Positions 23,600 to 42,043 of a stretch of 64,000 nt of DNA are shown piece after piece (within the stretch, counting starts at the first letter, position 1; each line of letters begins with the position of its first letter). Position numbers and translations under genes: made by a program. Source of the stretch: Deltaproteobacteria bacterium TL4 (GTDB taxonomy: Bacteria > SAR324 > NAC60-12). The DNA lies in assembly GCA_051382335.1 (NCBI GenBank), contig JBBCAX010000349.1, positions 1 to 64,000 on the forward strand. The letters run 5' to 3'. Under the pieces are notes generated by a model. That model made no database searches and was not told the DNA's origin. It saw only the letters and a list, made by a program, of their open reading frames with translations.

Positions 23600-26500
23600 A
23601 TGAAAATCCACTTAAGAATCCTACAGCTTTTATTGAGCGCCCTGATGATACTTGTAAGTCCGGCTTACTGCGAACAAGTAAGTTTGGATGAAACACTTTT
23701 CATGGCCAAAGGACTCAATGAAACCCTGCTAAGGGTTGCGTCTCCAGGACAGTATCGTCTTCAAACTAAAAGTGATCAAGGAACTCAATTAACTTTAGTA
23801 GATCGCATGGTAGGGCCAACTCATGTTTCCGGTGTTATGGGACAAAGCGATGCCCGTTTGGATGTTTTACTGGATGAAGGCGTTTACAAAGTCCGCTTGC
23901 AATCCCATCAAGAGGGGGTTGGACAAGTCGAACTTTCTGTTTTTACCTTTAAGGAAACTCAAGCAAAAAAACAAATCCCCGATTTCCCGGTTTTAGAATG
24001 GCCAAGTACGTATGCGGGAAAATTAGAAGATTTACAACAGAAGTCCTTTTGGTTTCACCTGGAAAATAGAGACGTGATCCGTTGGGAAGCCATGGGCAGA
24101 AATTTAAAAAACTGTCGCTTATGGCTGGATGGCAATTGGTTGATCGCAGAACAAGCGACAAGTTCAAGCTATGAGCCGATTGAAGGGCAACCCATGACCT
24201 ATTTGGAGTTTAATCAACAAATTAACCCGGGACTCTACCTGTTGACTTGTTATGGCGGAGAAGCCTTACCCTGGACAGAGCAAACCGACCGTCATCTCTT
24301 TTTTGTTCGTACAGGGGTTTCGAGTCTTGGCGATAGTGGGAGGCAAACATGGACAATTTCTCCTTTTGGACGGGATGTATTTAGGCTTCCTAAAGAAACG
24401 AATTTTTTTCAACTGATTCGTGAGGATAAAAAGGAGACCACTTTAAGCACAGGAACATGGACCGAGTATGGAACAAGGCATAAAGAGGAAAACCCTTGTA
24501 AAATCACAAAAGAGTCCCGAGATCCCTGGTGCGTTATTCAGAGTGCTTCCGGTTATGAAAAACAAGTGGTAAGTATTCGTGGGGAGCCTGGAGATGAAGT
24601 CCTTCTGGATTATTTTGTGAGTAAAAACGAAAAATTCGCCTTACCTCGTCAGACACAGGAATACTGGATCTCGAGTTTGCATTCCACAGAAGGAAATGAT
24701 GCGATTGATGTGACAGGCCTGATTATGAGTTTTTATGACAAGAAACCGATTATCTCCCAATTTCTGAGCCTCGGCAGAGGAAAACCCCTGGTACGGAAAA
24801 TCAATTTATTGGGCGAGGATGAAGTCTATATACAAGTTGAAGACTCAGGGACCTATACCCTTTTGGAAGATCCGGCTCAAGGAGCCAGCGTTCAATATCA
24901 ACTGGAACCTTTGATGTTTTATGAAAGAACAGATTATCGGGCTCCTTTGCAAAAACCGGGTGATGAGGTTGAGCTGATCCAGGGGATTTATGTATTGAAA
25001 CTGCACCCTGTCTCTAAAGGAATTCTATCGTTTACACTGCGTAAAAAAGAAAAATTTGAACTCCATACCTTTACTGAAAAGATGGTTTCGACCATACACG
25101 ATGTATTGGGAACGCAAGTAGAGACTTACGGAAATCTGCTTTGGCCCGCGGTGACTATTTCAGGAAGCGATAGGCCTCATGAGCTTTGGATGAATAGGAG
25201 GTATGGAGTCACGTCTGGTATTATTATGAGACCCTTGCCTTTAAACTTGGAAACCCCTCTCCCTATAACACTTGCCACGGGTCAGCAAGTTCCTATCAAA
25301 ATCCATATTCACCAACGCTCACGGATTGAGGTAAGTCATAAGCAGAACGCCAAATATTCGTTAAGTCAGAATGGAGCGTCTTTAAGTAGAAGCAGTTTTT
25401 TACCTCAGGGTCCTTATACGCTTACGCTTAAAAATACAGGAGAAACTTCCGGCTTATTTACCATCCAGGCGATGCCTTTTGTTTCCACCAAAAAGCTTTC
25501 CCCGAAACATCTTGACCATTTACAACAGGTTTCAGGATCATTTCCGGTTCTTAAAGAACAGAAGCCTGTTTTTGTGAATTTTGAGCGACACGAAAACAAA
25601 CACTTCACCGTATTGGTTGAAGAAGCCGGTCTGTACCGTATCGAAACGAGTGGACGCCTCGCGACGCAACTTACGGTTAGAAACCGAATGACAACGTCGT
25701 TATTTAATGCCTCACTCAATGGCATTGGCAGAAATGCTTTGGTACAGCAATACCTGAAACCAGGCGAGTATCAAGTGACGGTGCAGACACAAGGACAATC
25801 AAAAGGTCGTGCGGGAATCCATTTACGTCGAACCGCATTGGATACAGATAAAACTTTATTGGTTGATGGAGTTCAACGAGTCAGCTTGGAACCTGATGCC
25901 GCTGTTCGTTATCATTTTGAAATTACGGAAAAAGGAAACTATCAAATTCAAACCTCAGGTTTGGGAAAAACATTCGGTTTCCGCTTGGATGACGCGGAGG
26001 GTTGGCCTTTGGTGTCACCCGGAAATCAAGTCAGCATTCAACAGGAACTAGGGCCTGGTTCTTACTTTTACTACTCACTTCCCAGTTTTCTGGAAAGTCG
26101 ACGAAGCACCAAACTGAGTCAAATTAAATCACCGGCTGAACTTGTAGGAAAAGGCCCCCATGTTTTGCCGATCAATGCCACCCGCTCTCATCTTTGGCGT
26201 GAAACGCCAGGACGGATTCCCGATGTTTATACGCTCAACATTCCCGCGAATGTATTAGCAACGGGGACTTTAAGCAAAGGGATGGAGCTTTTTCTTTTTA
26301 GAAAAGGGGAAGGGCTGATTGAGACCATTTACGGGCCTAGTGGATGGGAAGGTGAATTAAAAACAGGGGAATACGAGGCCCAGGTGAAGAGTATTGAAAC
26401 GAATGATTTATTTCCCTACACTCTTGGCTTTCAAACCAAACAACTGATTTCAGGCATAACTCAAAAAATTCATTCGCTCCCCGCCTTACTCAAGGTCAGT

Positions 26501-28876
26501 GTTGGAACGACCAGTTTCGTTGATATCGCAAGTGAGGGAGGAACCGATGTGAAAGCGGTTTTATGTAATGAGCAGGGAACCCGGATCTTAGGATGGAATG
26601 ATGACGCGAAAGATGATTGGAATTTCCATCTTTCACAAAGATTAAAACCAGGTCTCTATACACTGAGGGTGATGTCTGTGGGCCAAAAAAGAGGTTCGGT
26701 TGGGGTCAAGATGCGGACACGGGAAGAGGTTTCACTTCAAGAGCATTTCCTCCCTTTCACCGTCGAAGAACGCTTGGGTGAAAAAGTATGGACGGTACCG
26801 TTCCAAAGCAAAAATAAAGAAAGTTTGATTCATCTCAAAGCCTCTGATCCTGACATCGGAATGACCTTGTTGACTCAAGATAGGGTTGTGGCTCAAGAAA
26901 AAGGTGAAATGTTTATCCCACTGAAATCCGACGATTTGTATCATCTCCAATTCTGGCATTTGAACAGTTCTTCCGAACCGATAACGATTACGGCAAAGCT
27001 TTTACCCTTCATAAAATCTGCGCTTTCGTCGTCTCAAACCAAGCTGGACATTCCTCCTAAAGAACATACGACCATTGTGCTATCCAGTGCTGAAAATATC
27101 AGTTATCACCTGTCGGAAAATCTAAAATCCTGGTTTTGTACGGCAGAACATTCCTCATGTCACCCCTTGGAAAATACGCCTTTTAGTTTGAATCAAGGAA
27201 AAGGCTGGTTGATTGTCAAAGGAGGGATCTCTGAAGAACAAATCACCTTAACGCCTTTTGAATTATCGCTTCAAAAGGTCACTATGGTTGAACTCGGACA
27301 GACCCCTTTAGCCTTTAACATCAATGTTTCAAAATCAGCGCCATTATTACTGGAGGCAACGTCCGTGGGGGGGATGTTAGGTGGCATGATTTCATCACAA
27401 AAAGCCGCTTCGTCTTTTTCCCGATCTTTTCATTGGTTTGGTTCAGAGAGTCAGCCGGCAAAAACAATCATGGGAATTCCAACAAAAGGACAATATTGGG
27501 GCCGAATCTGGAAAACAAAGAAATCTTCAAACCCGGAAAAGGTATTTTTTAAATTTCATGTCTTTGATCCTCAAGCACAGAAAGAACTGCCTTTCATGTC
27601 CACAGTTGAAGGTGTGCTCCAATCCGGTCAATCACAAAGTTATGCCTTGTCACAAAAGACAGGGACGCTCGAGCTTTCCATGACAAAAGGCATGGTTGCG
27701 TTTGTCTGGTCACAAGAACAAACAGAAACTCTGATTTCAGCAATGGAGGGAAATGTTCAGGAAACGGTTGATGTTTCCGGAGGTCTTTTGATTTTCACAA
27801 ACCAGGGAAACCAAGAGGCTTTATTCCATCTGACACCGGGAACAAAAAAAAATACCCTCCCTGCTTTTGATAACCGGAAAGGCTTTGAAGCTACTTTTTC
27901 TGAACCGGGAAAATTCTATTTATTCCTTCAAGAAATTCAAACCGGACATCACCTTTTTGTTGATGGCGACCATGTTTCCAGCCGCTTTTTTGATGCGGAG
28001 GGGGTGCTTCGATCAGGAACTCAATTCGAGATTAAGACGCCCTCAGAGCAAAATCAAGGAATGCTGGAAGTAACTCATGATACTGGTTTTGTGCAAGTAT
28101 GGCAGGGTCCTGTTCCTCAAAAGGAACGCCTACGGATGGGATCGCATGAAAACGTTGAGGAGTCCCCGTTGCTCGAAACAGGCGAACTGAAGCATGAAAC
28201 GCAATTGTGGAAAATCACCTTAAAACATCCCGGTTACCTTATCGTTGAGACGAACGCTCCTGGTGCAACCGCATTGCTTGATAAACAAATGGTATTAAAA
28301 ACCGCGCTAAGTGGATTCTCAACCCAACGCAGGCTTTCCTATTTTCTTGATTCCGGGGAATATCAATTGTGGACACGCCCCATTGAAGGCACAAAGCAAA
28401 CCGGCACCATTGAGATTCAAAAACTCGCGCCTGTTCTTCTTCACGAAGGACTTTCAGAAAAGATCTCACTGATACGTTCCGGAGTCCCTCATGTCTATCA
28501 ATTTGAAGTTTATGCCAAAGCTAAAATAGGAATTGGAGTTCGGACAGAGCAAGATCAGTTGAAAGGAGAACTCTATGATTCCAAATTTCAGTGGATCGCT
28601 CAAGGTCCTTTAATTTTTCGTGAGCTTGAACCAGGGAAATACATCTATGTCGTTTCTTTAAGCACCCCTTCATCACCTCCTGTCCAGTATAAACCCGTAC
28701 TTTGGGGGACACAGGGCAGTGAGTCAGGGGTTCCTGAAGAAGTGATGAAACAATACCAGCGGGAGGGACTTGCCATTCGTGATGAAATCCTATTGGGTGA
28801 TCACGGCAATACTCGAACAGAAAGCGACAGAGCTTCAAACAACACAGAAAATCCAGCGTCTGTTTGTCAATTCTAA
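23600..28876 (+). CDS. 1758-aa secreted multi-domain beta-rich protein with repeated PPC-like modules
   Basis: Signal peptide and recurring L-x-x-G-x-Y segments (LDEGVY, LKPGEY, LGPGSY, LKPGLY, LDSGEY, LEPGKY). The domain call is inference. Confidence 0.7.
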   Translation: MKIHLRILQLLLSALMILVSPAYCEQVSLDETLFMAKGLNETLLRVASPGQYRLQTKSDQGTQLTLVDRMVGPTHVSGVMGQSDARLDVLLDEGVYKVRLQSHQEGVGQVELSVFTFKETQAKKQIPDFPVLEWPSTYAGKLEDLQQKSFWFHLENRDVIRWEAMGRNLKNCRLWLDGNWLIAEQATSSSYEPIEGQPMTYLEFNQQINPGLYLLTCYGGEALPWTEQTDRHLFFVRTGVSSLGDSGRQTWTISPFGRDVFRLPKETNFFQLIREDKKETTLSTGTWTEYGTRHKEENPCKITKESRDPWCVIQSASGYEKQVVSIRGEPGDEVLLDYFVSKNEKFALPRQTQEYWISSLHSTEGNDAIDVTGLIMSFYDKKPIISQFLSLGRGKPLVRKINLLGEDEVYIQVEDSGTYTLLEDPAQGASVQYQLEPLMFYERTDYRAPLQKPGDEVELIQGIYVLKLHPVSKGILSFTLRKKEKFELHTFTEKMVSTIHDVLGTQVETYGNLLWPAVTISGSDRPHELWMNRRYGVTSGIIMRPLPLNLETPLPITLATGQQVPIKIHIHQRSRIEVSHKQNAKYSLSQNGASLSRSSFLPQGPYTLTLKNTGETSGLFTIQAMPFVSTKKLSPKHLDHLQQVSGSFPVLKEQKPVFVNFERHENKHFTVLVEEAGLYRIETSGRLATQLTVRNRMTTSLFNASLNGIGRNALVQQYLKPGEYQVTVQTQGQSKGRAGIHLRRTALDTDKTLLVDGVQRVSLEPDAAVRYHFEITEKGNYQIQTSGLGKTFGFRLDDAEGWPLVSPGNQVSIQQELGPGSYFYYSLPSFLESRRSTKLSQIKSPAELVGKGPHVLPINATRSHLWRETPGRIPDVYTLNIPANVLATGTLSKGMELFLFRKGEGLIETIYGPSGWEGELKTGEYEAQVKSIETNDLFPYTLGFQTKQLISGITQKIHSLPALLKVSVGTTSFVDIASEGGTDVKAVLCNEQGTRILGWNDDAKDDWNFHLSQRLKPGLYTLRVMSVGQKRGSVGVKMRTREEVSLQEHFLPFTVEERLGEKVWTVPFQSKNKESLIHLKASDPDIGMTLLTQDRVVAQEKGEMFIPLKSDDLYHLQFWHLNSSSEPITITAKLLPFIKSALSSSQTKLDIPPKEHTTIVLSSAENISYHLSENLKSWFCTAEHSSCHPLENTPFSLNQGKGWLIVKGGISEEQITLTPFELSLQKVTMVELGQTPLAFNINVSKSAPLLLEATSVGGMLGGMISSQKAASSFSRSFHWFGSESQPAKTIMGIPTKGQYWGRIWKTKKSSNPEKVFFKFHVFDPQAQKELPFMSTVEGVLQSGQSQSYALSQKTGTLELSMTKGMVAFVWSQEQTETLISAMEGNVQETVDVSGGLLIFTNQGNQEALFHLTPGTKKNTLPAFDNRKGFEATFSEPGKFYLFLQEIQTGHHLFVDGDHVSSRFFDAEGVLRSGTQFEIKTPSEQNQGMLEVTHDTGFVQVWQGPVPQKERLRMGSHENVEESPLLETGELKHETQLWKITLKHPGYLIVETNAPGATALLDKQMVLKTALSGFSTQRRLSYFLDSGEYQLWTRPIEGTKQTGTIEIQKLAPVLLHEGLSEKISLIRSGVPHVYQFEVYAKAKIGIGVRTEQDQLKGELYDSKFQWIAQGPLIFRELEPGKYIYVVSLSTPSSPPVQYKPVLWGTQGSESGVPEEVMKQYQREGLAIRDEILLGDHGNTRTESDRASNNTENPASVCQF

Positions 28877-28898
28877 ATCTTTAAAGCCAAGGTGGATT

Positions 28899-31800
28899 AT
28901 GTGGAAGCGAATCATAGGGTGTTTATGCTTAGGCATCTTTTTATATGGAAATCCTCAAAGGGGATTTGCTCAAAAATCAATTCCGGAACATATTATTGGG
29001 GCTGATAAAACCACGGTTGTGCCGGAAGCCTTTCTGAGAGCTTATGATCCAATTACGATTTTTTTCAATAAAGACGAAGGACCTGCAGAGGGAGGCCCTG
29101 TCGATCAGCTTGAAAAGTGGATGATCATGACTCCAGAACATCCCGGGGAAGCACGTTGGTTGGACGCCAGAACTTTACAATTTTTTCCGACAATCGCATG
29201 GCCTGCCTTAAGCCGTTATACGCTTCTGGTAAAGCAGGAAAAAAAATCCCTGGTCACTTTGATGCATCCTCCCTCCCATCTTTCCCCCAGTCCTGGAAGC
29301 GTTGAGTTGGAACCCTTGAGAGATTGGATGTTCCGTTTTGAAAATCGGATGGATCTTCAAAAACTGAAAAGCATGATAAGCCTTGAAGTTCTGCCCTTAC
29401 CAGGCGTCGGGAATGCCAATCAGGTTTGGATTACAGAGAATGATTTCACCTTAAAAGAAATCGAACGGACTTCACTTCATTCCCCTGTTGAGTATCAACT
29501 GACCTTACACCGTCCTATCGATTATGGCAAAAAAGCGATTCTGCATTTTCGCTTGTCTTTGGATGAGACCACAAGCAGCTCTGTCGCCCGCTATGCCTTT
29601 TCAACCAAAGCGCTTTTCCGAATAACAGGTTTGGGCTGCGGTTCCTTTTTATATCCGGTTTCAGTCAAGGGGAGTGTTTATTCCATGGATCAAGCTTTGA
29701 ATTGTGGAGATGCCCTTCCGTCTTTTTTCCTGCAATTCAGCGAACGTTTGGGGCCTGTCTCCATGGAAGAAGTAAAACGTCTGGTAAGCTTCAGCCCTGC
29801 TGTTCAGAGTTTCCGGTATGAGGTTTCAGGGAGCCGATTACAATTATTTTTTGATGTTGCACGTGATAAACCGTATGAACTTCGTTTGAACAGCATGGTT
29901 CTTCGGAGCGTTTCCAATCGGGAGTTGGCACCTTTTGGAGAAGTTTCCACGTTCTTTTATTACACCCAGGAATCGCCTTATCTTCGATGGCAGCAAAGTC
30001 AGGGTCTGGTGGAACAATATGGTCCTCAGCAATTTCCGATGGAAGGTCGTGGAGAAGAGCAACTGGATTTAAGGATTTATAAGATTGACCCCCTGGATCG
30101 TAACTTCTGGCCTTTTCCCAACTCGCCTTTGGCGTTAAATGATCAAAACCGTCCTCCCGGTCCCGGAGAAGAGCCTGAGCCGGGAACGCGAATGCCGGAA
30201 CAAATCCAATTGTTAGGCAGTCCTTTAGTTTCAACATTAGTGCCTTTACCCACTAAAGAACGTTCAGGCGGATTAAAATTCGGCTTGGATCTCCAACCTC
30301 ATTTTACAAAAATTTCCGGTCCCTCTCAACCGGGCACCTACCTCGTTGGATATCGAAATATCGGAAGTAGTACAACACGCCAATTTGTCAGAACTCAAGT
30401 CACCGATTTAAGCTTAAGCACCATCGAGGAGGAATCGGCTGTAACGTTTATTGTGACTTCCTTAAAAACAGGCAAGCCCTTGACCGATGCAACTGTGAGC
30501 GTGGAAGGAGAGTATGAATCGTCTCATCCTCTTTATTCTCCAAAGGATGTTGACAAATGGCAGGTGTTGATTTCTGGCATAACGAATACACAAGGGCAAT
30601 TCAGGTATGAACAGGTTGAGCGAATTAAAGCTCAAATTCGACGGATTGCCGTCCAACGTGAAAATGAGAGACTGGTGTTGAATCCACAATACCCACCTCC
30701 GCACTTTGCGAATAATCATTGGTATCATGAGGAATCTCCCTGGTTGGACTGGCTTAACCGAGATACGCAACATAATCGGGAAAAGGCGATTCGGAAAGTT
30801 TTTTTATTTATTGAAAGACCTGTTTATCGTCCTGAAGAACCTGTGCATATCAAAGGCTTCTTACGGTTACGTCAACAGGGAATGCTCAAGCATGAACCCG
30901 ATCGTCCAAGAACTTTGGTGATTCAAGGACCAGGTAACAAGGAGTGGACCTACCCTGTGCGATTAAATAAAATGGGGAGTTTTTACCATAAATTTGAGGA
31001 AAAAGACTTACCCACCGGAATGTATCAGGCTTACCTGCTCGACGAACAATCCTTTGAGCACTTAGGGTCGGCCCAATTTAAAAAAGAAAGCTATCGCATT
31101 CCTCGTTTTGAAATTAATATTTCTGGCCCTGATAAAGTTCCTTTAGATCAACCTTTTCAATTAACCATGACCGCGGATTACTATGCGGGAGGACGAGTTG
31201 TGGGGCAGGACGTTTCATGGCAAGCGACCCAGTTTCAGTACCGCTTTTCGCCTCCCCGTTTTCCCGGGTTCCTTTTTTCTACCGATGAACGATTTCTTAG
31301 CGGACACCCTTTCAGATCTTCAGGCAGTCTTCGAAAACAGGAGAAAACCGATGAAAACGGCGCCTCTTTTTTCACGCTCAATCCGGCAGTCGAACTGGAT
31401 GGAAAACCCCGCCAATATGTGGTTGAAGTCACCGTTAGGGGGGCTGATGAACAAACCGTTTCCGCAACGAAAACGGTCCTGGCTCTTCCCGCGTTTATGC
31501 TTGGAATAAAGGTGGATCGTTTTTTAAATCAGGCAACCACCATTTCACCGCAACTCCTGGTACTCAATCATGAAGGGAAACCCTTGGAAGGGCAGGAATT
31601 TCGATTGCGCCTGTTACATAGACAATGGCATTCCTATTTGAAGGAAAGCGATTTCACAACAGGAAAAATCCAATATGTCAATGATGTGGTCGATGTTCCG
31701 GTTATTGAAAAACGTATGGTTTCTGAACAAAACCCCATGACAACGCCTCTCACGGTAGAGGAATCCGGCGTTTATGTTGTGGAAATGACCGCAAAGGATC

Positions 31801-34673
31801 GTTTGGGACGTTTGCAGAAAGTTGCCGTGGATTTATACATCGCGGGAAAGACACCTGTTGCCTGGGAAAAGCCCAAATCTCAAGTTTTTGAAATGACTCT
31901 GGCTCAAAACGAGTATAACCCTGGAGAAACAGCGACTCTTCTGTTAAAAAGTCCCTATCAACAAGCGAATGCCTTAATTATTCTCGAAACTCCTACCGAT
32001 AATCAATATCATTGGGTCGAAATATCAAACGGCCAGGGCGTTTTTTCATTTCCTGTCCATGAGAACATGACACCAAGAATGCCGCTCCATGCTCTTTTAT
32101 TGCGGGGTCGTTTGGAGGGAAAGTTACCTTCTACAGAAAACGAAGACCGTTACCGGCCTATTGCCATGGGAAGCACCGCATGGGTCAAAGTTCAGCCTAA
32201 AAATAACCGCATGAATGTAACGTTAACACACCCCCCGAACAGCCTGCCGGGCGCGTCTCTCCCCTTAACCATCGAACTGAGTGATCCTGAGGGAAAGCCT
32301 CTGAGTGGTGAAGTGACGCTTTGGCTTGTCGATCAGGCGGTGTTAGCCTTAGGAAAGGAACAAGCGTTGGACCCCGTACCCGCGTTTATGGATCCAGTCT
32401 TTTCGCGGATAAGGTTCAGAGATTTGCGAAATCAAATTATTGGCGAGATTTCCTTAGAAGAAAACCCGGGTGGAGATGGAACCAGGGATGACGCGGAATT
32501 ATTCCGACAAGTGACTGTCCGTAAAAACTTCAAAACCATGCCTTATTATAACCCTGCGTTGAACGTCCTTAAAGGAAAAGTTCAAGTGACCATTGAACTG
32601 CCTGACAACCTGACCGATTTCGCTATACGTGCTGTCGCAACAGAGGGGCTTGCCCGTTTTGGGCATGCTAAATCAACGTTATCCGTTCGCCTTCCTCTTA
32701 TCGTACAGTCGGCATTGCCTCGTTTTGTCCGGCCTGGAGATCGTTTTATCGCAGGAGGCATTGGACGTGTTGTGGAAGGCCTGGGAGGAGACGGGATGGT
32801 TGAACTGCAAGCTGAAGGAGTGGTCGTTGAGGGCGCGCTTCAACGCAAAATTAACTGGGTTAAAGATCAACCAGAGCCGCTTTTCTTTCCCATGACCGTG
32901 AACCAGCTTACCCCCATTGATGGCGCGGAAGAGAGTCACATTGTGATCCGTATGGCCGTCAAAAGAAACAGCGATAATGCGAAGGACGCGTTTGAAATCA
33001 AATTACCTGTCAAACCAGACCGTGAAAGAGTGCACCTTGAAAGTATGGCTCAAATTCAACCCCAGCAAATACTGTCTTTTTCGACTCCTGAAGAAGACAT
33101 GCGTCCGGGCTATGTGACTCAAGCGATAGTCCTTACCCAGGAACCTGCGCTGATTAAAATGCTTGCCGGATTGAATTACTTAATCAGTTATCCACATGGC
33201 TGCACCGAACAGCGTATCAGTCGAATGATGGCGGAACTGGCCTTGCAAGCGTTACTGGATCCAATGGGGCCTAATCAACGAAAAACAGCGATTAAAGCCT
33301 CCATGGAAACAACCTTGGCGTATTTGGAAATCACACAGAAGCCCAACGGACTTTATAGTTACTGGCCAGGATCTCAAGGATATGTCAGTTTAACCGCCTA
33401 TGTTGTGGAGTTTTTACTGTTGGCTAAACAGCAAGGATATCCTGTCAAGGAAGCTTTATTGGAACGAAGTCTTCAAGCTTTAAAAGATTCTTTAAGAACC
33501 GATTATAGCTCCTTTATTGATGGAGCCTCCTTTATAGAACGGGCCGAAGCTCTTTACGCCTTATCCAAAGCGGGAATGTTTGAAGAGGGATACGCTCGTG
33601 ATTTATTTGTTCGGGCCATGAATATGGATCTTTATAGTGAAGCAAAAATCATGACCACCTTAATGGATCGGTATGGAAACAATACCGATGAGGTGAGAAA
33701 ACTTAAAACGGATTTATGGAAAAGCCTGATATTTAAATTACATGACGGCAAAGAAAGGTATCAGGGGTTGCAATACCGGTCCCAAACTTGGGGAGGACTG
33801 ATTCTTTCGAGTGAAGTGAAAACCCTGGCGAATGTCAGTCGGGCTCTTTACCACTCCGAACCTGAAAACCCCAGAGTTCGTTTGTTGGTGGACGAATTGA
33901 TTTCCCGTGGAAATCAGGATGGTTGGGGTAGCACCAGTGCCACGACGGCAGCACTCTTGTCGTTGGGCGAAGCTCTGAAAACCCCACAACCCTCTCAACA
34001 GGAACACAAAATTGAGTTAATTTTTGGTGATAAGACAACCATCCTCAATACCGCGGGTAAGGTAATGACCGAGCATACATCGCATGAGACCGCTCTTGGC
34101 AAAGTTCAATATCGGAGCGGACCTGAAGAGACAATACCTTTTGCTAAACTGACCTTGGAATATCTTCCTTCAAAATCAGGCGATCACGTTCAACAAAAAA
34201 ACGCGGGATTTGTAGTCGATCGTGAGCTGCTCATCATTCAGGAAGGCAACATGCCTCCGGTCAGACAAAAGGCTGTCGCGGGACAAAACATTGAATTACC
34301 GATGGGAGCCATTATTGAAGAGCATGTTCGTGTCGTCAATCCTTCACCTCGTAACTTTGTCGCTGTTCAGGTCCCTTTTGCCGCGGGTTTTGAACCCCTC
34401 AATCCCAATCTGGCAACTTCTCCTAAAGAAGCCCTCCCTACAGGGATGATGACGCAAACTCCTGATTATTCACTATACGAGGATGATCAAGTAACCTTTT
34501 ATTACGATGTCTTACCTAAGGGCGTTTATGATTTTTATTTTCGTCTTCGAACAAGCATTGAAGGGAGCTTTGTTCATCCTTCAGCAAAAACAGAAATGAT
34601 GTATCACCAGGCTGTTTATGGATGGTCTGAAGGAACTCGTGTCCTGATTAAACCCCGCACGCTTAATCCATGA
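28899..34673 (+). CDS. Bacterial alpha-2-macroglobulin with thioester motif
   Basis: ERPVYRPEE, YRIPRFE, LVDQAVL, bait-like GGDG...VRKNF, LPDNLT, PRFVRPGD and YPHGCTEQ. Start reassigned to ATG at 28899 (AAGGTGG RBS). Confidence 0.93.
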   Translation: MWKRIIGCLCLGIFLYGNPQRGFAQKSIPEHIIGADKTTVVPEAFLRAYDPITIFFNKDEGPAEGGPVDQLEKWMIMTPEHPGEARWLDARTLQFFPTIAWPALSRYTLLVKQEKKSLVTLMHPPSHLSPSPGSVELEPLRDWMFRFENRMDLQKLKSMISLEVLPLPGVGNANQVWITENDFTLKEIERTSLHSPVEYQLTLHRPIDYGKKAILHFRLSLDETTSSSVARYAFSTKALFRITGLGCGSFLYPVSVKGSVYSMDQALNCGDALPSFFLQFSERLGPVSMEEVKRLVSFSPAVQSFRYEVSGSRLQLFFDVARDKPYELRLNSMVLRSVSNRELAPFGEVSTFFYYTQESPYLRWQQSQGLVEQYGPQQFPMEGRGEEQLDLRIYKIDPLDRNFWPFPNSPLALNDQNRPPGPGEEPEPGTRMPEQIQLLGSPLVSTLVPLPTKERSGGLKFGLDLQPHFTKISGPSQPGTYLVGYRNIGSSTTRQFVRTQVTDLSLSTIEEESAVTFIVTSLKTGKPLTDATVSVEGEYESSHPLYSPKDVDKWQVLISGITNTQGQFRYEQVERIKAQIRRIAVQRENERLVLNPQYPPPHFANNHWYHEESPWLDWLNRDTQHNREKAIRKVFLFIERPVYRPEEPVHIKGFLRLRQQGMLKHEPDRPRTLVIQGPGNKEWTYPVRLNKMGSFYHKFEEKDLPTGMYQAYLLDEQSFEHLGSAQFKKESYRIPRFEINISGPDKVPLDQPFQLTMTADYYAGGRVVGQDVSWQATQFQYRFSPPRFPGFLFSTDERFLSGHPFRSSGSLRKQEKTDENGASFFTLNPAVELDGKPRQYVVEVTVRGADEQTVSATKTVLALPAFMLGIKVDRFLNQATTISPQLLVLNHEGKPLEGQEFRLRLLHRQWHSYLKESDFTTGKIQYVNDVVDVPVIEKRMVSEQNPMTTPLTVEESGVYVVEMTAKDRLGRLQKVAVDLYIAGKTPVAWEKPKSQVFEMTLAQNEYNPGETATLLLKSPYQQANALIILETPTDNQYHWVEISNGQGVFSFPVHENMTPRMPLHALLLRGRLEGKLPSTENEDRYRPIAMGSTAWVKVQPKNNRMNVTLTHPPNSLPGASLPLTIELSDPEGKPLSGEVTLWLVDQAVLALGKEQALDPVPAFMDPVFSRIRFRDLRNQIIGEISLEENPGGDGTRDDAELFRQVTVRKNFKTMPYYNPALNVLKGKVQVTIELPDNLTDFAIRAVATEGLARFGHAKSTLSVRLPLIVQSALPRFVRPGDRFIAGGIGRVVEGLGGDGMVELQAEGVVVEGALQRKINWVKDQPEPLFFPMTVNQLTPIDGAEESHIVIRMAVKRNSDNAKDAFEIKLPVKPDRERVHLESMAQIQPQQILSFSTPEEDMRPGYVTQAIVLTQEPALIKMLAGLNYLISYPHGCTEQRISRMMAELALQALLDPMGPNQRKTAIKASMETTLAYLEITQKPNGLYSYWPGSQGYVSLTAYVVEFLLLAKQQGYPVKEALLERSLQALKDSLRTDYSSFIDGASFIERAEALYALSKAGMFEEGYARDLFVRAMNMDLYSEAKIMTTLMDRYGNNTDEVRKLKTDLWKSLIFKLHDGKERYQGLQYRSQTWGGLILSSEVKTLANVSRALYHSEPENPRVRLLVDELISRGNQDGWGSTSATTAALLSLGEALKTPQPSQQEHKIELIFGDKTTILNTAGKVMTEHTSHETALGKVQYRSGPEETIPFAKLTLEYLPSKSGDHVQQKNAGFVVDRELLIIQEGNMPPVRQKAVAGQNIELPMGAIIEEHVRVVNPSPRNFVAVQVPFAAGFEPLNPNLATSPKEALPTGMMTQTPDYSLYEDDQVTFYYDVLPKGVYDFYFRLRTSIEGSFVHPSAKTEMMYHQAVYGWSEGTRVLIKPRTLNP

Positions 34674-37042
34674 TGACTGGGAATCGTTTAAATCCGTCTA
34701 AAATTGCGATCACCGTTGCGTTTTTAATCATCGGACCGCTTTTAATCGCCTTCGTTGGATACAAGGAACTTAAGGGGAAAATTCAACTGACGGCTCCTCT
34801 CTCTACGCCCTTAATCGAAGATCGGCAGGGCCAATTTATTACAGAAGGCAATTCCAGTTATCAACAGGATTTAGGCTTCTGGGAAATCAAGGGTGAGCTT
34901 CCAGAAAGGATGAAACAGGCCCTCCTGGTGATTGAAGACCGACGTTTTTACAAACATCAAGGCGTGGATCTCCGTGCTCTTTTTCGAGCGTCTTGGTACA
35001 CCTTGACTCATGATACCCGTCAAGGCGCTTCAACCTTGGCCATGCAGATCATTCGGATGCAAAATCCCGGTGAACGTACCTACTGGCATAAACTATGGGA
35101 AATGATCGCGGCCCTCGGGTTGATTCATAAATATGGATATGACGCCGTACTTCGGCATTATTTAAAGATAGCACCTCAAGGAAATAGAATTCATGGAGTT
35201 TCTTATGCGGCAAGGAAGTATTTCCAGAAGCCTTTGAGTGATTTGAGTTGGAGTGAGGCCGCGGTCCTTGCTAGCTTGCCCAAAGCTCCTGGAAGCATGA
35301 ATGTTTATAATTATTATGGATTCCAAAAAGCCTTAACACGGGCAAACCTGATTCTGGAATTATTGAAACAACATAAGTTCTTGAATCAAGAAGAGTATCA
35401 GGCGTCCACACGAGAGTTAAAAAACCTTCCGATGCCCGTAAAAATAGCTCAGCCCTACCATAGCTATCATGCGATTATCAAAATGAAACAGGCACTCCAA
35501 CAACTACCCGGTTTTGCCTATGCTCAACCTTTGCATTCAGGAATGGATCTGCGAATCCAAAGTGAAATTGATACGTTGGCAAGCGCGACAATTCGACAAC
35601 TTCGCCTTCAAGGCGCGGGAAATGTTTCAGTCATAGTAACCGAAAAAGCCACAGGACTGATTGTGGGATATCTCGGATCAGAGTTTTATTACGACGATTG
35701 GTATGCCGGAGCCATTGATTACGCGTCAGTCCCCCGCTCCTCAGGAAGTACCTTAAAGCCATTTATTTACGCGTTAGGCCTGGAGGGGAAATACTTTACC
35801 CCGTCAAGCATTCTAACCGATCTTCCCTTAACGATTCATTATTCTGGTGGTAATTATAGTGTTCGTAACTTTGATGAAAAATATTTGGGGCCTGTCATCT
35901 ATCGCAAGGCCTTAGCCAATAGTCGAAATGTTCCCGCGGTTCAAATTCTTAGAGCGATTGGACTGGAGGAAACTTATCAGCTTTTTGATCGTTTGGGGTT
36001 AATCAAGGACTCAAAACCCGCTGATTATTATGGCTTAGGAATGGCCATCGGGGGCTTGTATGTGACCTTGGAAGACTTGGTCAGAGCTTATGGTGTTTTA
36101 GCAAATGAAGGGATGTCTTTTAATCAACACTGGTTTGTCAAGGATTCAAACGCTTCCCGCACCCGCCTCCTTTCTGAAGAAACAACCCGTCAAATTTCTC
36201 TGTTTCTTTCTGATCCTCAAGCGAGATTGCCTTCCTTTCCCCGGAAAACGATGCTGGAATATCCCTTTCCTGTTGCCGTAAAAACAGGAACGTCTCAAGG
36301 CTTTCGAGACGCCTGGACGCTTGCCTATAGCTCACGTTATATTGTGGGCGCATGGATCGGGCATCATAATAATGAACCCATGAAACATGTCAGTGGCATA
36401 GATACAGCTCGGCTGGTCAAGCAAATATTAGTCTTTCTACATCCAGAGGAAAGCCGTGGTATTCATGAAACCCCTTTTCCTCCTCCGCAAGGTTATGAGT
36501 CTGTTAAACTATGCGGATTGAATGGTCAACCTGCGACTGAGGCGTGTCCTGAAGTGTTTTTAGAGTATTTTCTTCCAGATCTGGCACCGAAAAAGAAAGG
36601 GGAATTCCAACAAAAAATAGTTGTAGATCAACGAACTGGTACCGTTCCAACCACAGAAACCCCTTCAAAACAGGTCGCGCTCAAAAATTATGTGGAGTTG
36701 CCTGCTCAGTTTTATGAATGGGGAACTCAGCAGGGATATAATGTTTCCGCACTTTTGGACTCACCTTGGAAAACTTACGTAAAAATTCAAGAACCTGTAC
36801 ATCAAAGTGTATTTATTATTGATCCTGATACGCCTCAAGCTCTTCAAACGCTGGCTTTAAGAGCAGAGACGATGCCCCTTGTCTCAGAAATAATATGGAA
36901 GGTTGATGGAAGGTTGTTTGGAAGGGCTTATTATCCATACACATTGCGCTGGCCCTTGTCTCCGGGAGAGCATACCTTTCAAGCCCATTTTCCTCACGCG
37001 AATGTAGTCAGTGAGGCTGTAACCATTACGGTGTCAAAGTAA
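34670..37042 (+). CDS. pbpC: Penicillin-binding protein 1C
   Basis: EDRRFYKHQGVD and GASTLAMQ (transglycosylase); GSTLKP, SRN and KTGT (transpeptidase); ATGA overlap with the A2M stop. Confidence 0.9.
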   Translation: MMTGNRLNPSKIAITVAFLIIGPLLIAFVGYKELKGKIQLTAPLSTPLIEDRQGQFITEGNSSYQQDLGFWEIKGELPERMKQALLVIEDRRFYKHQGVDLRALFRASWYTLTHDTRQGASTLAMQIIRMQNPGERTYWHKLWEMIAALGLIHKYGYDAVLRHYLKIAPQGNRIHGVSYAARKYFQKPLSDLSWSEAAVLASLPKAPGSMNVYNYYGFQKALTRANLILELLKQHKFLNQEEYQASTRELKNLPMPVKIAQPYHSYHAIIKMKQALQQLPGFAYAQPLHSGMDLRIQSEIDTLASATIRQLRLQGAGNVSVIVTEKATGLIVGYLGSEFYYDDWYAGAIDYASVPRSSGSTLKPFIYALGLEGKYFTPSSILTDLPLTIHYSGGNYSVRNFDEKYLGPVIYRKALANSRNVPAVQILRAIGLEETYQLFDRLGLIKDSKPADYYGLGMAIGGLYVTLEDLVRAYGVLANEGMSFNQHWFVKDSNASRTRLLSEETTRQISLFLSDPQARLPSFPRKTMLEYPFPVAVKTGTSQGFRDAWTLAYSSRYIVGAWIGHHNNEPMKHVSGIDTARLVKQILVFLHPEESRGIHETPFPPPQGYESVKLCGLNGQPATEACPEVFLEYFLPDLAPKKKGEFQQKIVVDQRTGTVPTTETPSKQVALKNYVELPAQFYEWGTQQGYNVSALLDSPWKTYVKIQEPVHQSVFIIDPDTPQALQTLALRAETMPLVSEIIWKVDGRLFGRAYYPYTLRWPLSPGEHTFQAHFPHANVVSEAVTITVSK

Positions 37043-37115: not shown

Positions 37116-38825
37116 TTACTCCCTGATCATTTCCGAGTGTCTGCCATGAAATCCTAGAGAAATATCATTCGTTAACTCTCCCTTTTCTAAAACAAATCCA
37201 TCTTGAGGGACTGTGATCACACGGCTTCCAACATCGACTTCTCCATCATCGGCAAGGATCTGGTTGAAATTTTCGCTTAGGTTTCCCCGTTGCCCTGTCA
37301 TCTTTTCAATAAAATAATTGCTCCTTGACGCAATTTTTTCCACCACCAGGACCAAGGCGGGATAAGGGTAACCTGCCGCAGCAGCGGCTTGGCGGAGTTG
37401 TTTTTTATTGAGTTGTTTGAGGCGCTCAATGAACGCCAGCACATCCTGTTGGGTCGTTTGATACCAGGCAGAAACATCCCTCTGACGAGTTGGGATGGTG
37501 ATTGTGGGCGCCCCCTTGGTGTCTTGTTGAATATCAAAGCCTATCGAAAATTGATTAGGATGAGGCTCAAAAGCGAGTCCTAAATCATGCACGACAAATT
37601 GATATTGATAATTTCCACTACAGTCCGGATTATCACATTTCAAAAGAATGCGATTGTTATCATACTTTATGTCTTCATTTCCTAACCAGTAATGCAGCAA
37701 GCCTAATAACCGGACAGCACGTAATTCCGGATTGCCTAACGCATCAAAAGACCACGATCCTACTCTTACAATCTTCGGATCTCTTCTTTCTAAAACAACT
37801 TCTTTAAACATCAAATACTGAATGTGTTTACGGTTTTGCTGATAGAGTTTTTGAACCTCAGGCTGATATTCTGCTGTCGCAATTAAAGAAATCGTCGTCC
37901 CGTCTTTCAAATGGATTGCTGAAAGTGAGTCTTCCAAACGGCGTGCGTGGCCCTCAAACAATTGTTCCAAAACCTCAGTGTATTCCACTCTCAGTTCCCG
38001 TACATGAAAGACTTCATCGACGGGAAATCCCAAGCCCCAAGCTAAATGCGTTGCTAAAGGTTCCCGATAGGATTCCCAACCTATTTTGACTTTCCATTCC
38101 GTATCCCGGTTAACATCCTTGACAAAAAAACCAGTAGATTTTCCTCGTTCCGATTTAGTGTGAATAAAACGATAAACATGGGATGAATCCATTAAATAAT
38201 CTATTTCCTCAGGCGTAGCATAAGCGTAGTACAGATTTCGCTGAGCAATGGATTCAATGGAAGGATCCATAAAATAAGCTTCAATCGCTTGTTTTTCATA
38301 AGGATGAGGGTCCGATTTTAATACAATTCGTTCAGTACATTCTTGCAGAAAGCTTCGATCGGTTACTAATTCGCCCCAACGTAAGTGGTTATAAAGGGTG
38401 AGCCATTGTTTTTTTTCTGAAAGCTTGGAACTTTTTTCCAGTCGACGAATCAAATCCAGTTTCACATAAGCCGTCCGTCCCTTTTTCGATAAAGGCTCGT
38501 GATAGGATAGACGCTTCTCAGGTAATGCCTGATTGATCAGCGTTTCCTGCTCTTGACGTTGACGTTCTTCTTCCTGAATACGGTTCCATAAACGATTTTG
38601 TTCGTTGCGTATTAAGTCTTCATCATACAACAATTCACTCTGCTCATCAATGGCAATGGAGGTCAGTTTTTGCGTAAAATCACAACTTTGTGGTGCACTA
38701 TCCGTGACTTCCAGACGATCACCACAGGAACTTAATAGAGCCCCTGAGAAGACGAATCCCAAAATCAAAAAGGTGTAAGGAAATTTACGAAATGGACGAA
38801 ATCTGGGGTTCCACATAGGGTTCAT
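37116..38825 (-). CDS. Lipoprotein with atypical kinase-like motifs
   Basis: Lipobox LLSSC, WKVK, ExxxE, NEDIKYDNN and HDLG. Start is uncertain (38816-38864). Confidence 0.6.
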   Translation of the reverse strand: MNPMWNPRFRPFRKFPYTFLILGFVFSGALLSSCGDRLEVTDSAPQSCDFTQKLTSIAIDEQSELLYDEDLIRNEQNRLWNRIQEEERQRQEQETLINQALPEKRLSYHEPLSKKGRTAYVKLDLIRRLEKSSKLSEKKQWLTLYNHLRWGELVTDRSFLQECTERIVLKSDPHPYEKQAIEAYFMDPSIESIAQRNLYYAYATPEEIDYLMDSSHVYRFIHTKSERGKSTGFFVKDVNRDTEWKVKIGWESYREPLATHLAWGLGFPVDEVFHVRELRVEYTEVLEQLFEGHARRLEDSLSAIHLKDGTTISLIATAEYQPEVQKLYQQNRKHIQYLMFKEVVLERRDPKIVRVGSWSFDALGNPELRAVRLLGLLHYWLGNEDIKYDNNRILLKCDNPDCSGNYQYQFVVHDLGLAFEPHPNQFSIGFDIQQDTKGAPTITIPTRQRDVSAWYQTTQQDVLAFIERLKQLNKKQLRQAAAAAGYPYPALVLVVEKIASRSNYFIEKMTGQRGNLSENFNQILADDGEVDVGSRVITVPQDGFVLEKGELTNDISLGFHGRHSEMIRE

Positions 38826-38961
38826 CAGGGACATCAAGAACAATAGTTGGATGGCGATTGACAACGTTAGAATTTTTTATTGACTTGCAGAGATGCAACT
38901 CACAGCCCTTATTTCTTTTTTGTCCCTTCTGCCACAAAACTCAAGATCCAAAAGGAAAACT

Positions 38962-38990: not shown

Positions 38991-39192
38991 CGTTTGTCAC
39001 TGTCGCGGAATAGATATTAGCCTTTAGGGGTGAGGTCTTGTTATTAAACACCTGTAATATCAGCCTATTTTTAAAACGAAGTTCTCATCCCTAAAGGCTG
39101 AAAGCCAATGAAGCGACAAAGACTTGTGAGAATTTGATTAAAATTGCCTTGCAACCCTTCCTCGAATAATGTAGTTATCTGCGGCTCATTCA

Positions 39193-39278
39193 GGAGGGGT
39201 GGGAGAGTGGTTTAATCCGGCGGTCTTGAAAACCGTTGTGCGCGAGTACCGGGGGTTCGAATCCCTCCCCCTCCGCCA
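39193..39278 (+). tRNA. tRNA-Ser(TGA)
   Basis: Cloverleaf, anticodon arm GCGGT-CT-TGA-AA-ACCGT, variable arm, TTCGAA loop and encoded CCA. Confidence 0.97.
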
Positions 39279-39315
39279 ATAAAAAACGTCTTTCGGCGTT
39301 AATTTTTCTCTGTGC

Positions 39316-39405
39316 GGAGAGATGACTGAGAGGCCGAAAGTGGCAGATTGCTAATCTGTTGTACTCGCAAGGGTACCCAGGGTTCGAATCCCTGTCTCTC
39401 CGCCA
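39316..39405 (+). tRNA. tRNA-Ser(GCT)
   Basis: GCAGA-TT-GCT-AA-TCTGT, long variable arm and CCA end. Confidence 0.97.
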
Positions 39406-39425
39406 TATAAAAACCTGCTCATAAC

Positions 39426-39502
39426 GCACCCGTGGCTCAGCTGGATAGAGCATCTGATTGCGGTTCAGAGGGTCGGGCGTTCGAATCGCTCCGGGTGCAC
39501 CA
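39426..39502 (+). tRNA. tRNA-Arg(GCG)
   Basis: GCACCCG/CGGGTGC acceptor stem, TCTGA-TT-GCG-GT-TCAGA anticodon arm and CCA end. Confidence 0.95.
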
Positions 39503-39603: not shown

Positions 39604-41067
39604 ATGCATCTCAGTTGGTTGTTTTTTCCCGGATTTATGGCAATTCTTTGGAGTCTTCGGCATCGATTGATGCTGATTGGCGTTGTGTTGATGTCAGCAT
39701 GTGGTTTATTGGCTTACCAACTCTTTATCCAACTTCCTGAATGGGAAACCACCTTAACTCAAGGCCTGGATCAACAGCAAACGGTATGGGTTCGCGGAAA
39801 AATCCAAAGAGCTCATCTGGAGAACAACGAGGCCCAATTACATCTGATTGCTGTTGACATGTTTGCTTCTGAACAAGAGACAGAACTCCATGAAATTTTT
39901 GTCACATTTCCCACCTATCCCGGTCGCCAACCCCGGTTTTTTCGGCAACGTCATATACAAATCAGTGGGACGCTTAACGAAGTGAAAGCAGAAAGCCAAC
40001 GTCTTCATCTATCTTTTGCCAAAGCGCATTTCCATGATGTGCAGACTCCTGAAAGTGCTTTTCAACGACGGCGGAGCAGCTTCCATGCGCGACTGGTGAA
40101 TCGTGCGCAGTTTTATCTTTCTGAAAAAGCAGCCTCACTCTATTTGCCGGTCACTTTGGCCAACAGTGTCTATTTGCCTGAAGTCCGCAATTTATTCAGT
40201 GAAACAGGCGTCTCCCACTTATTAGCAATCAGCGGGTTACATATTGCGCTCATCTATGGAATGGTGCTTTGGGGGCTCCAGAGCATAGGCGGACGTGTTA
40301 CACAATGGATGCTTTGGCCTTATTTCATTCCCTTTTCTCAAACAATGACGTTAATAGGGTTATGGGGCTATATCTTCCTTTTGGGGTTTCCTCTACCGGC
40401 TTTACGTGCGGTATGTATGTTGTCACTCTGGGTTGTGATCCGTTGGAGTGGGCAACAACAACACCCGCTGTATCTCCTTTTTCTCACAGCGTTAGGGTTT
40501 ATGATTCAGCAACCTACAACCATTTATGACGTGTCCTTTCAACTTTCATTTATGGCGGTATTTTACATTTTGTTATTTGCCCGATTTCTGAGTATAAACC
40601 TTGAAAAGGTGTCACTCTTTCACCGAATGCTCCATTATTTGTGGGCGAGTTTTGTAGTGACAGGAAGTGTTTCACTGGGTTTGTGGCCAATCCTGGTGAG
40701 TTATTTTCATGCTTTTTCTTTTGAGGTTTTTTGGCTGAATTTAATTCTGATTCCCCTCTTGGGTTTGGTCATCTTACCCCTTTGTTTAATCGCCCTGTTA
40801 AGCAGTCTTGTGTTGCTCAACGAGGTTCCTTTTCATTTTTTAGAATCGTGGAGTTTTCAACTGGTGGAGTGGGGAATGCAGGGATGGCTTTGGGGGTTAA
40901 GCCATTTACACCAGTGGGCCTCCTGGGCCCAATGGCATCTGAGTTTAGAGTGGGAACCCTTCGATTTTTTCTTATATTATGGAAGCACAGGACTCCTTTG
41001 GTACGTTCTCAAAAGGTGGCAAGAAGCCTTTAGACCACATCTGAGGAACCACCACGGCCTCCAATAA
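39604..41067 (+). CDS. comEC: ComEC/Rec2 competence membrane protein lacking the C-terminal beta-lactamase-like domain
   Basis: TGVSHLLAISGLHI, ALRA and DVSFQLSF. Confidence 0.85.
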   Translation: MHLSWLFFPGFMAILWSLRHRLMLIGVVLMSACGLLAYQLFIQLPEWETTLTQGLDQQQTVWVRGKIQRAHLENNEAQLHLIAVDMFASEQETELHEIFVTFPTYPGRQPRFFRQRHIQISGTLNEVKAESQRLHLSFAKAHFHDVQTPESAFQRRRSSFHARLVNRAQFYLSEKAASLYLPVTLANSVYLPEVRNLFSETGVSHLLAISGLHIALIYGMVLWGLQSIGGRVTQWMLWPYFIPFSQTMTLIGLWGYIFLLGFPLPALRAVCMLSLWVVIRWSGQQQHPLYLLFLTALGFMIQQPTTIYDVSFQLSFMAVFYILLFARFLSINLEKVSLFHRMLHYLWASFVVTGSVSLGLWPILVSYFHAFSFEVFWLNLILIPLLGLVILPLCLIALLSSLVLLNEVPFHFLESWSFQLVEWGMQGWLWGLSHLHQWASWAQWHLSLEWEPFDFFLYYGSTGLLWYVLKRWQEAFRPHLRNHHGLQ

Positions 41068-42043
41068 CCAGTGTTCCCGCTTCTTCCATTTTTCTGACAA
41101 CCGTAATAATTTTTTGCTGCGCAGCTTCAACATCGGAAACTTTAACGGGACCCATGATTTCCAAGTCTTCCCGGACCATATCCGCTTGACGGGAAGACAT
41201 ACTACTGAAGATGAGTTCTTTCACGGAATCTCCTGCCGTTTTCAAAGAAAGGACGAGGTCATTTTGGTCAATTTCTTTAAGCACATTTTGCATTTGACGA
41301 CTATCCACCAAGACCAAGTCTTCAAAAGTAAACATGAGTTCACGAATTTGCTCTGCAAGATCAGGGTTACTTTCCTCAATAGTGGCCAGAATTCGAGTCT
41401 CTGAGGCTTTATCCAAACTGTTGAGAATTTCCGCGACAGATTCCACACCTCCCACTTTGGTCCCAACGCCTGCGGCCGTTTTCATTTCTTCGGAAAGTAC
41501 CTCGTCCATTTCCGCAATTACGCCTGGGGGAATACTTTCAAGAATCGCCATCCGATAAACAACATCCGCTTGCAGGTTTTCAGGTAATTCACGCAGTACG
41601 GTTGAGGCTTGTTCCATGTCTGTCAGGTGAGCCATGATTAAGGAAATGGTTTGAGGGTGTTCGTTGACGATGTAACTTGCAATCACTTTGGCATCCATGT
41701 ATTTCAGCGAATCGAGTGCCCCTTCTTCCTGGTGGGCTTTCAGTCCATCCACCAGGTCTCGGGCACGATCGGAACCAAGAGCTTTGGTCAAGGCGTTTCG
41801 TACAAAGTCTCCTGTCGCGTTAATTCCCGCGCCTTCATCCTGAATGACGGATTTACGGTAATATTCTTCAAGGACCAAGTCCAGCTCTTCAGGAGACACA
41901 TCAGTGAAGCGTGTCATATAATAACCTACCTGCTGAATTTCAGATTCTTCTAAATTCTTCAGGATTTCTGAGGCACCCTCTTCTCCCAAGGCCAGAAGTA
42001 GAATTGCTGCCTTTTTGGGACCTGTCATTTTTCCGACACTCAT
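41030..42043 (-). CDS. fliG: Flagellar motor switch protein FliG
   Basis: KAAILLLALGEE, EHPQ, GG hinge, MFTFEDL and VEAAQQKI. Confidence 0.96.
   Translation of the reverse strand: MSVGKMTGPKKAAILLLALGEEGASEILKNLEESEIQQVGYYMTRFTDVSPEELDLVLEEYYRKSVIQDEGAGINATGDFVRNALTKALGSDRARDLVDGLKAHQEEGALDSLKYMDAKVIASYIVNEHPQTISLIMAHLTDMEQASTVLRELPENLQADVVYRMAILESIPPGVIAEMDEVLSEEMKTAAGVGTKVGGVESVAEILNSLDKASETRILATIEESNPDLAEQIRELMFTFEDLVLVDSRQMQNVLKEIDQNDLVLSLKTAGDSVKELIFSSMSSRQADMVREDLEIMGPVKVSDVEAAQQKIITVVRKMEEAGTLVIGGRGGSSDVV

Follow-up and report, generated by a model that had tools for sequence, protein, structure and literature searches.

Animals are well known to phosphorylate proteins and glycans in the extracellular space by means of the Fam20 kinases, and those of the Golgi are supplied with imported ATP. 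Related folds are known from bacteria: CotH works in the cytoplasm of the mother cell, with ATP at hand, and HipA is a toxin that acts in the cytoplasm and is paired with an antitoxin. As a rule, the periplasm is regarded as free of ATP or poor in it, and phosphorylation outside the cell is, to our knowledge, almost unexplored in bacteria. Here we describe a gene of Deltaproteobacteria bacterium TL4, a member of the SAR324 phylum, that lies on the reverse strand of the first 64,000 nucleotides of contig JBBCAX010000349.1 (assembly GCA_051382335.1; this whole stretch is called the window below). Its product is predicted to be an exported lipoprotein that combines a kinase-like fold with a full and conserved catalytic set, and we tentatively propose, with slightly less than even confidence, that it is a phosphotransferase working beyond the cytoplasmic membrane.

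Predicted fold and catalytic residues

The fold of the window protein is confidently predicted to be kinase-like and to belong to the group that contains HipA/CtkA, Fam20, PI4KII and CotH. The AlphaFold 2 model computed from a 74-sequence alignment has a mean predicted local distance difference test score (pLDDT) of 88.4 and a predicted template modelling score of 0.88; it superseded a poor first model based on 10 orthologues only (pLDDT 57.7). A disordered tether (residues 35-66) leads in this model to three long helices (69-153), a core (about 200-513), a C-terminal beta module (528-553) and a conserved tail, and the predicted two-lobed core can be superposed on solved kinases. Kinases headed the Foldseek results for both models at marginal significance: Fam20C, CtkA, HipT and actin-fragmin kinase led with the first model (best E value 1.4e-4), and the top of the list obtained with the second consisted of kinases only (best E value 2.6e-3). 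The structural comparison gave its highest score to DrFam20C1 (12.3; root-mean-square deviation 3.6, 235 aligned residues, model residues 202-511), followed by CtkA (12.1), Hydra Fam20 (12.0), PI4KII-alpha (11.1), Caenorhabditis elegans Fam20 (11.0), CotH and MavQ (10.4 each), actin-fragmin kinase (10.1) and HipT/HipA (9.6-8.2). From row 15 downwards, the matches were generic helical bundles, picked up by the N-terminal helices. With the exception of the pseudokinase Fam20A, the closest solved structures are true kinases. Protein language-model neighbours, useful as a lead only, included the named clusters Fam20C, HipA_2 and CotH at 0.80-0.84.

Each of the described systems differs from the window protein in some respect. 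CtkA, the cell-translocating kinase A of Helicobacter pylori (PDB 3akk, 3akl, 3akj), and the HipA/HipT toxin kinases are alike in fold but show no significant sequence or profile similarity to it; the window protein differs from them by its lipoprotein signal peptide, its N-terminal helical region, its cysteine pairs and its C-terminal beta module, and no antitoxin partner of the kind known for HipA is present beside the gene. The Fam20 kinases (the Golgi casein kinase Fam20C, Fam20B and Fam20A; PDB 5yh0, 4kqa, 5xom, 5wrs) are 12-14% identical to it in structural alignments, and they form a eukaryotic Golgi family, whereas the window protein is a predicted bacterial lipoprotein with no known ATP supply. 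The spore-coat kinase CotH (PDB 5jda, 5jd9) has a similar fold, but its Pfam model PF08757 is not matched and CotH is absent from the window's genome. The structural matches also include two lipid kinases, type II phosphatidylinositol 4-kinase alpha and Legionella MavQ (PDB 4pla, 4yc4, 7m7a).

The first-pass annotation, made from the DNA sequence, had recognized the layout of an atypical kinase in this protein: a glycine-rich loop, a beta3 lysine, an alphaC glutamate, a D-x-K-x-x-N catalytic loop and a DLG motif, all behind a lipobox. Every one of these elements is present in that order, and the proposal withstood both the structure prediction, which gave a kinase-like fold with Fam20C and other kinases at the head of the Foldseek lists, and the survey of conservation, in which the motif residues proved to be the best-conserved positions of the family. 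In the second model, the glycine-rich loop falls between strands 217-223 and 231-237, K247 lies within the third strand of the N-lobe (243-248) and E251 and E255 stand at the start of helix 254-264. D385 and N390 are placed between helix 369-381 and strand 391-397, and D414 just past strand 406-412.

Conservation was assessed at two depths. Among the 10 sequences of the orthologue alignment A1, the invariant positions comprise G228, S230, F233, W244, K247, G249, W250, E251 and Y253-E255 in the N-terminal half and N383, D385, I386, K387, D389-R392, H413, D414, G416 and L417 in the catalytic region; the tail residues N553, D554, I555, H560, G561, H563, E565, M566 and R568 are invariant as well. 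The distant set consisted of 152 domain rows aligned to the family hidden Markov model (HMM). Here K247 is kept in 134 rows, E251 in 135, D385 in 146, N390 and D414 in 138 each and G416 in 141, a retention of 88-96% that makes these six the best-kept positions family-wide. An acidic residue (E or D) occupies position 255 in 121 of the rows, and a basic one (K or R) position 387 in 132. A separate MAFFT alignment of 74 sequences has D385 in all 74 and each of K247, E251, N390, D414 and G416 in at least 90%. The beta3 lysine, the alphaC acid, the catalytic aspartate and asparagine and the metal-binding aspartate of D-x-G are all found in order, and since these catalytic residues are conserved across distant relatives, the motif set is no chance pattern. 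The glycine-rich loop is kept in close orthologues only (glycine at position 228 in 59 and at position 232 in 44 of the 152 rows). Other strongly kept positions are G266, G356, R369, R372, D461 and R501.

Export signal, family and distribution

The N-terminus of the protein reads MNPMWNPRFRPFRKFPYTFLILGFVFSGALLSSC/GD, and its residues L31-S32-S33-C34 satisfy the lipobox pattern [LVI][ASTVI][GAS]C. The window protein is thus predicted, from its sequence, to be exported, lipobox-bearing and lipid-anchored. Cys34 is present in nine of the 10 aligned orthologues, and the tenth lacks its N-terminus. Two conserved cysteine pairs fit disulfides in an oxidising compartment: C48 (9/10 orthologues) with C163 (10/10), and C397 (9/10) with a cysteine of the adjacent insertion (7/10; C402 in the window protein). 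By a crude hydropathy test, 122 of the 157 family representatives that start with methionine have a hydrophobic N-terminus, and 23 of these 122 carry a lipobox-like motif. Together with the outer-membrane genes found beside relatives, these features support the extracytoplasmic location suggested by the first-pass annotation.

Table 1. Features of the kinase-like gene and of its product, in window coordinates
Feature	Coordinates	Strand	Remarks
Whole gene	37116..38825	-	569 codons plus stop (stop codon 37116-37118); start at the in-frame ATG at 38825
Signal peptide with lipobox L31-S32-S33-C34	38724..38825	-	basic n-region RFRPFRK; hydrophobic core FLILGFVFSGALL; Gly at +2
Low-confidence tether, residues 35-66, with C48	38628..38723	-	pLDDT below 50 at 35-43 and 51-59
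N-terminal helical region, residues 67-158	38352..38627	-	helices 69-100, 114-131 and 135-153; resembles generic helical bundles only
Protein-kinase-like core, residues 200-513	37287..38228	-	predicted fold
Glycine-rich loop KSERGKSTGF, residues 224-233	38127..38156	-	between predicted strands beta1 and beta2
KVKIGWESYRE, residues 245-255	38061..38093	-	beta3 lysine K247; E251/E255 start the alphaC-like helix
Catalytic loop NEDIKYDNNR, residues 383-392	37650..37679	-	D385, K387, N390
DLG, residues 414-416	37578..37586	-	counterpart of the metal-binding DFG motif
C-terminal beta-hairpin module and tail NDIS...HGRHSEMIRE, residues 514-569	37119..37286	-	strands 528-553

A word-indexed search returned nine orthologues at 45-54% identity, one of them annotated as hypothetical and assigned to a SAR324 cluster bacterium, and a further search with profile A2 returned just the 10 sequences already known. 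An orthologue occurs in four of the 88 genomes of the SAR324 phylum, the window's genome included, where the gene is single-copy; all four belong to one family and measure 5.8-9.7 Mb. An exhaustive HMMER search enlarged the protein family to 266 cluster representatives at E values up to 1e-3, 69 of which remain at E values up to 1e-10. The window protein itself has no match in Pfam (E value up to 1) or NCBIfam and no sequence match in the PDB, and NCBIfam matched none of 18 family members. No description of the family was found in full-text searches of the literature. Preprint 10.64898/2026.09.18.752743 concerns new kinase-like families of the oral microbiome, and its supplements could list a related one. 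The protein-kinase-like superfamily and its fold are known, and what appears to be new is a variant: a bacterial lipoprotein family of such fold that has no database model and is predicted to lie outside the cytoplasm.

Family members fall into two length classes, of about 400-750 and about 1100-1200 amino acids. In a FastTree phylogeny of 155 core domains, the ten SAR324 sequences form one clade (support 0.997) whose sister is P0012, a further paralogue present in genome G042 (0.995), and this group is nested in a larger clade that comprises 65 mid-length proteins (0.984). A separate group holds the 74 long forms and 10 shorter sequences (0.99). The long forms retain KxK, the glutamate, D-x-K-x-x-N-N and HDLG.

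The 74 long representatives (P0013-P0050 and others, 1040-1225 amino acids) carry a C-terminal extension of about 550 amino acids without any Pfam or PDB sequence match, and 23 of them end in phenylalanine. This ending raises the speculative idea of an outer-membrane barrel fused to the C-terminus.

Gene neighbourhoods of the window gene and its relatives

The open reading frame (ORF) of the kinase-like gene can be read longer, as 37116..38864 (-), which gives 582 amino acids from a TTG start; besides this TTG at 38864, an ATG at 38816 is an alternative start, and an identical database protein of 566 amino acids begins three residues later. The gene is convergent with the PBP1C gene, whose stop is at 37042, leaving a gap of 73 nt; co-transcription of the two is excluded by this orientation. 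Genes for tRNA-Ser(TGA), tRNA-Ser(GCT) and tRNA-Arg(GCG) lie upstream on the opposite strand (cluster 39193-39502, +), so that the kinase-like gene stands as a lone transcription unit. Consensus scans for promoters and terminators around it gave nothing above chance.

Several other features of this part of the window were recorded. A bacterial alpha-2-macroglobulin (A2M) gene with MG2, bait-region, A2M and bMG10 domains (28770-34673, +) is followed by PBP1C with its transglycosylase, transpeptidase and BiPBP_C domains; their reading frames share 4 nt and together span 28770-37042 (+), and we take them to be the classical A2M-PBP1C pair. The A2M gene is immediately preceded by an ORF of 1758 amino acids (23600-28876, +) without a Pfam match at E values up to 1e-5, and its end runs over the TTG listed as the start of the A2M ORF. 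Antisense to the tRNA cluster runs an ORF of 87 amino acids (39190-39453, -) that is almost certainly no gene. Beyond it, a competence gene of the ComEC family (39604-41067, +) and fliG (41030-42043, -) converge, with an ORF overlap of 38 nt.

Different neighbours are found at the three related SAR324 loci: carB, a GFO/IDH/MocA oxidoreductase, GAPDH and an HtrA-like protease. Two of the four orthologue-bearing SAR324 genomes have a porin-like gene as the immediate upstream neighbour, in the same orientation (L002/L007 in genome G042 and L003/L008 in genome G045; genes at L002:6419-7672 and L003:6589-7938, the latter paired with the kinase-like gene at L003:7935-9671), and the two porin-like products, of 417-449 amino acids, are 63% identical to each other. 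A porin-like gene of 24% identity also precedes the paralogue P0012 directly, with an overlap of about 30 nt (L010:3002-4120, -). In genome G044 the porin-like gene does not adjoin the kinase-like gene. The porin-like proteins, 390-450 amino acids long overall, have a signal peptide, belong to no Pfam family and end in YSF or LNF. The language-model clusters closest to them are those of siderophore porins and Porin_O_P/Porin_4 at 0.97, with phosphate porins also among them; below the Pfam thresholds, Porin_4 reached an E value of 0.033 and Omp85 10.9 bits (E value 0.32, cut-off 24). We infer from the sequence that this upstream gene is porin-like rather than an Omp85 gene.

The distant subfamily was examined at 80 metagenome loci, 52 of which have an upstream neighbour. 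At eight of the 52, the gene directly upstream on the same strand belongs to one and the same BLAST cluster, with gaps of -3 to +10 nt, and all four scanned members of this cluster match Omp85 (PF01103; 33.8-43.4 bits, cut-off 24). No such Omp85 pairing exists for the window gene, whose upstream neighbours are the three tRNA genes. No similarity was detected among the SAR324 porin-like proteins, the Omp85 neighbours of the distant subfamily and the C-terminal halves of the long family members (nothing by phmmer; hhalign Prob 0.5 or less, with 0.5 for the porin-like protein against the Omp85 cluster). The remaining neighbours of the metagenome members are heterogeneous. Pfam was scanned over 132 of 145 representative proteins encoded within three genes of metagenome members; of those omitted, 10 were scanned separately and three were the longest.

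At the eight loci just mentioned (L066, L067, L068, L071, L075, L078, L087 and L090), a barrel gene of 405-500 amino acids is translationally coupled to an exported kinase-like member of about 565 amino acids, and most of these kinase-like partners have another residue in place of the beta3 lysine.

Proposed activity, alternatives and significance

According to the mechanism that we propose, the window protein would be exported by the Sec pathway, lipidated at C34 and tethered to a membrane through a flexible linker of roughly 30 residues; the glycine at +2 would probably place it on the periplasmic face of the outer membrane. Between the lobes, a nucleotide triphosphate would be bound, with K247, paired with E251 or E255, orienting the alpha and beta phosphates, N390 and D414 holding Mg2+ or Mn2+ and K387 steadying the gamma-phosphate, while D385 would activate the hydroxyl of the substrate. 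More speculatively, donor or substrate may be provided through the porin-like gene found beside relatives. By analogy we favour a serine or threonine of a protein in the envelope or outside the cell as the target, because of the D-I-K-x-x-N loop and because the three closest relatives of known structure, CtkA, Fam20C and CotH, are protein kinases.

Several observations weigh against this proposal. Sequence comparison does not lead to known kinases: PDB searches with the window protein and with profiles A2, A4 and A5 gave no match, and Pfam scans of 21 sampled and then of 74 aligned family members found no recurrent family and no kinase model in any of the 74. The HMM of Fam20 (PF06702) likewise matched none of these 74 at E values up to 5, and those of HipA_C (PF07804), CotH (PF08757) and PI3_PI4_kinase were not matched. 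By hhalign, the comparison with the genome's own HipA reached a Prob of 0.05 and that with a 10-sequence SAR324 HipA profile a Prob of 0.12 (E value 0.47); the sole alignment proposed with HipA, which is not significant, sets both catalytic loops in register. The beta3 lysine is lost in six of the seven aligned members of one distant branch, which still has D-x-K-x-x-N and D-V-G. The predicted overlay of K247, D385, N390 and D414 on the catalytic residues of Fam20C and CtkA is deduced from sequence order and predicted secondary structure, and the proposed phosphotransferase activity and localisation are drawn wholly from predicted structure and conservation. Kinase folds with other chemistries exist, SelO being an AMPylase and SidJ a glutamylase. 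Finally, the link to a porin is missing in the window's own genome, where the porin-like homologue (45% identity) lies among unrelated neighbours on contig C180 (C180:17360-18427; L011:6358-7656, -).

The source of the phosphate donor is a further difficulty. No gene for an ATP/ADP carrier lies near the kinase-like gene, and the only match to the TLC family in the genome is weak (22.5 bits, cut-off 21) and located on another contig. This match, at C401:16632-17216, is inside an open frame of about 1100 amino acids. Stronger TLC matches exist in G042 and G045 but are also unlinked, and G044 has none. Phmmer searches with the TLC-match proteins of SAR324 found none among the neighbours of family members, and neither TLC nor PAP2 families were present among the 132 scanned metagenome neighbour proteins at E values up to 1e-6. 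A periplasmic ATP-diphosphohydrolase of Shigella is described in the abstract of PMC5613738, so that nucleotides past the inner membrane would not be without precedent.

The alternative that survives best retains the chemistry and changes the substrate, which would be a lipid head group, a surface polysaccharide, peptidoglycan or a solute entering through the porin-like channel. The lipid kinases among the structural matches show that such a fold can act on non-protein substrates, yet the D-I-K-x-x-N loop, associated with serine/threonine kinases, and the match to CtkA point to proteins, and genes of lipid or glycan biosynthesis are not conserved beside family members at the loci examined. We regard a non-protein substrate as rather unlikely.

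A kinase fold engaged in another nucleotide chemistry, such as AMPylation, glutamylation or some other transfer, seems improbable to us. It has only precedent on its side, kinase-like proteins that can AMPylate or glutamylate being reported in the abstract of PMC10870513. Against it stand the canonical phosphotransfer set, intact and strongly conserved with D385 and K or R at position 387 included, and the nature of the nearest solved structures noted above. We give an equally low probability to a non-catalytic role, in which the protein would sense a nucleotide or another ligand, or serve as a scaffold bound to a barrel of the outer membrane: the orthologues show no variation at any of the five catalytic residues, which are also the best-conserved positions over the 152 distant rows, as is typical of active enzymes.

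Membership of an A2M/PBP1C envelope-defence module, for example as a regulator or modifier of either protein, is very improbable and was rejected, for besides the 73-nt convergent arrangement its only other sign is a bMG10 gene fragment (the A2M C-terminal domain; L048:2047-3429, -) convergent with a distant family member two genes away, probably a coincidence as the one A2M domain among the 132 neighbours scanned, and A2M and PBP1C are both missing from the surroundings of all three related SAR324 loci, which agrees with the first-pass annotation in making the link one of position only.

A phosphotransferase acting on envelope or extracellular proteins thus remains the reading that we prefer. 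It may be placed, with considerable reserve, in a wider frame: the window protein could belong to a widespread and as yet undescribed bacterial system of extracytoplasmic phosphorylation, in which kinase-fold lipoproteins or secreted proteins are stationed at the outer membrane, in many cases next to a barrel of their own that holds the kinase or feeds it nucleotide or substrate, as a counterpart of the eukaryotic Fam20 kinases of the secretory pathway. We consider this extension rather doubtful. The barrel of such a system would be porin-like in SAR324 and of the Omp85 type in other lineages, and possibly fused to the kinase in the forms of about 1100 amino acids.

The family described here, with its 266 representatives, combines an intact kinase active site with a mostly exported state and, in several lineages, a position beside outer-membrane barrels, and it is covered by no Pfam or NCBIfam model. 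The SAR324 protein, compact, single-copy and equipped with every catalytic residue, is a good candidate for expression and assay. If the family is active, bacteria must bring a phosphoryl donor past the inner membrane, and targets in the envelope or in the environment would undergo modification that goes wholly unnoticed in current annotation.

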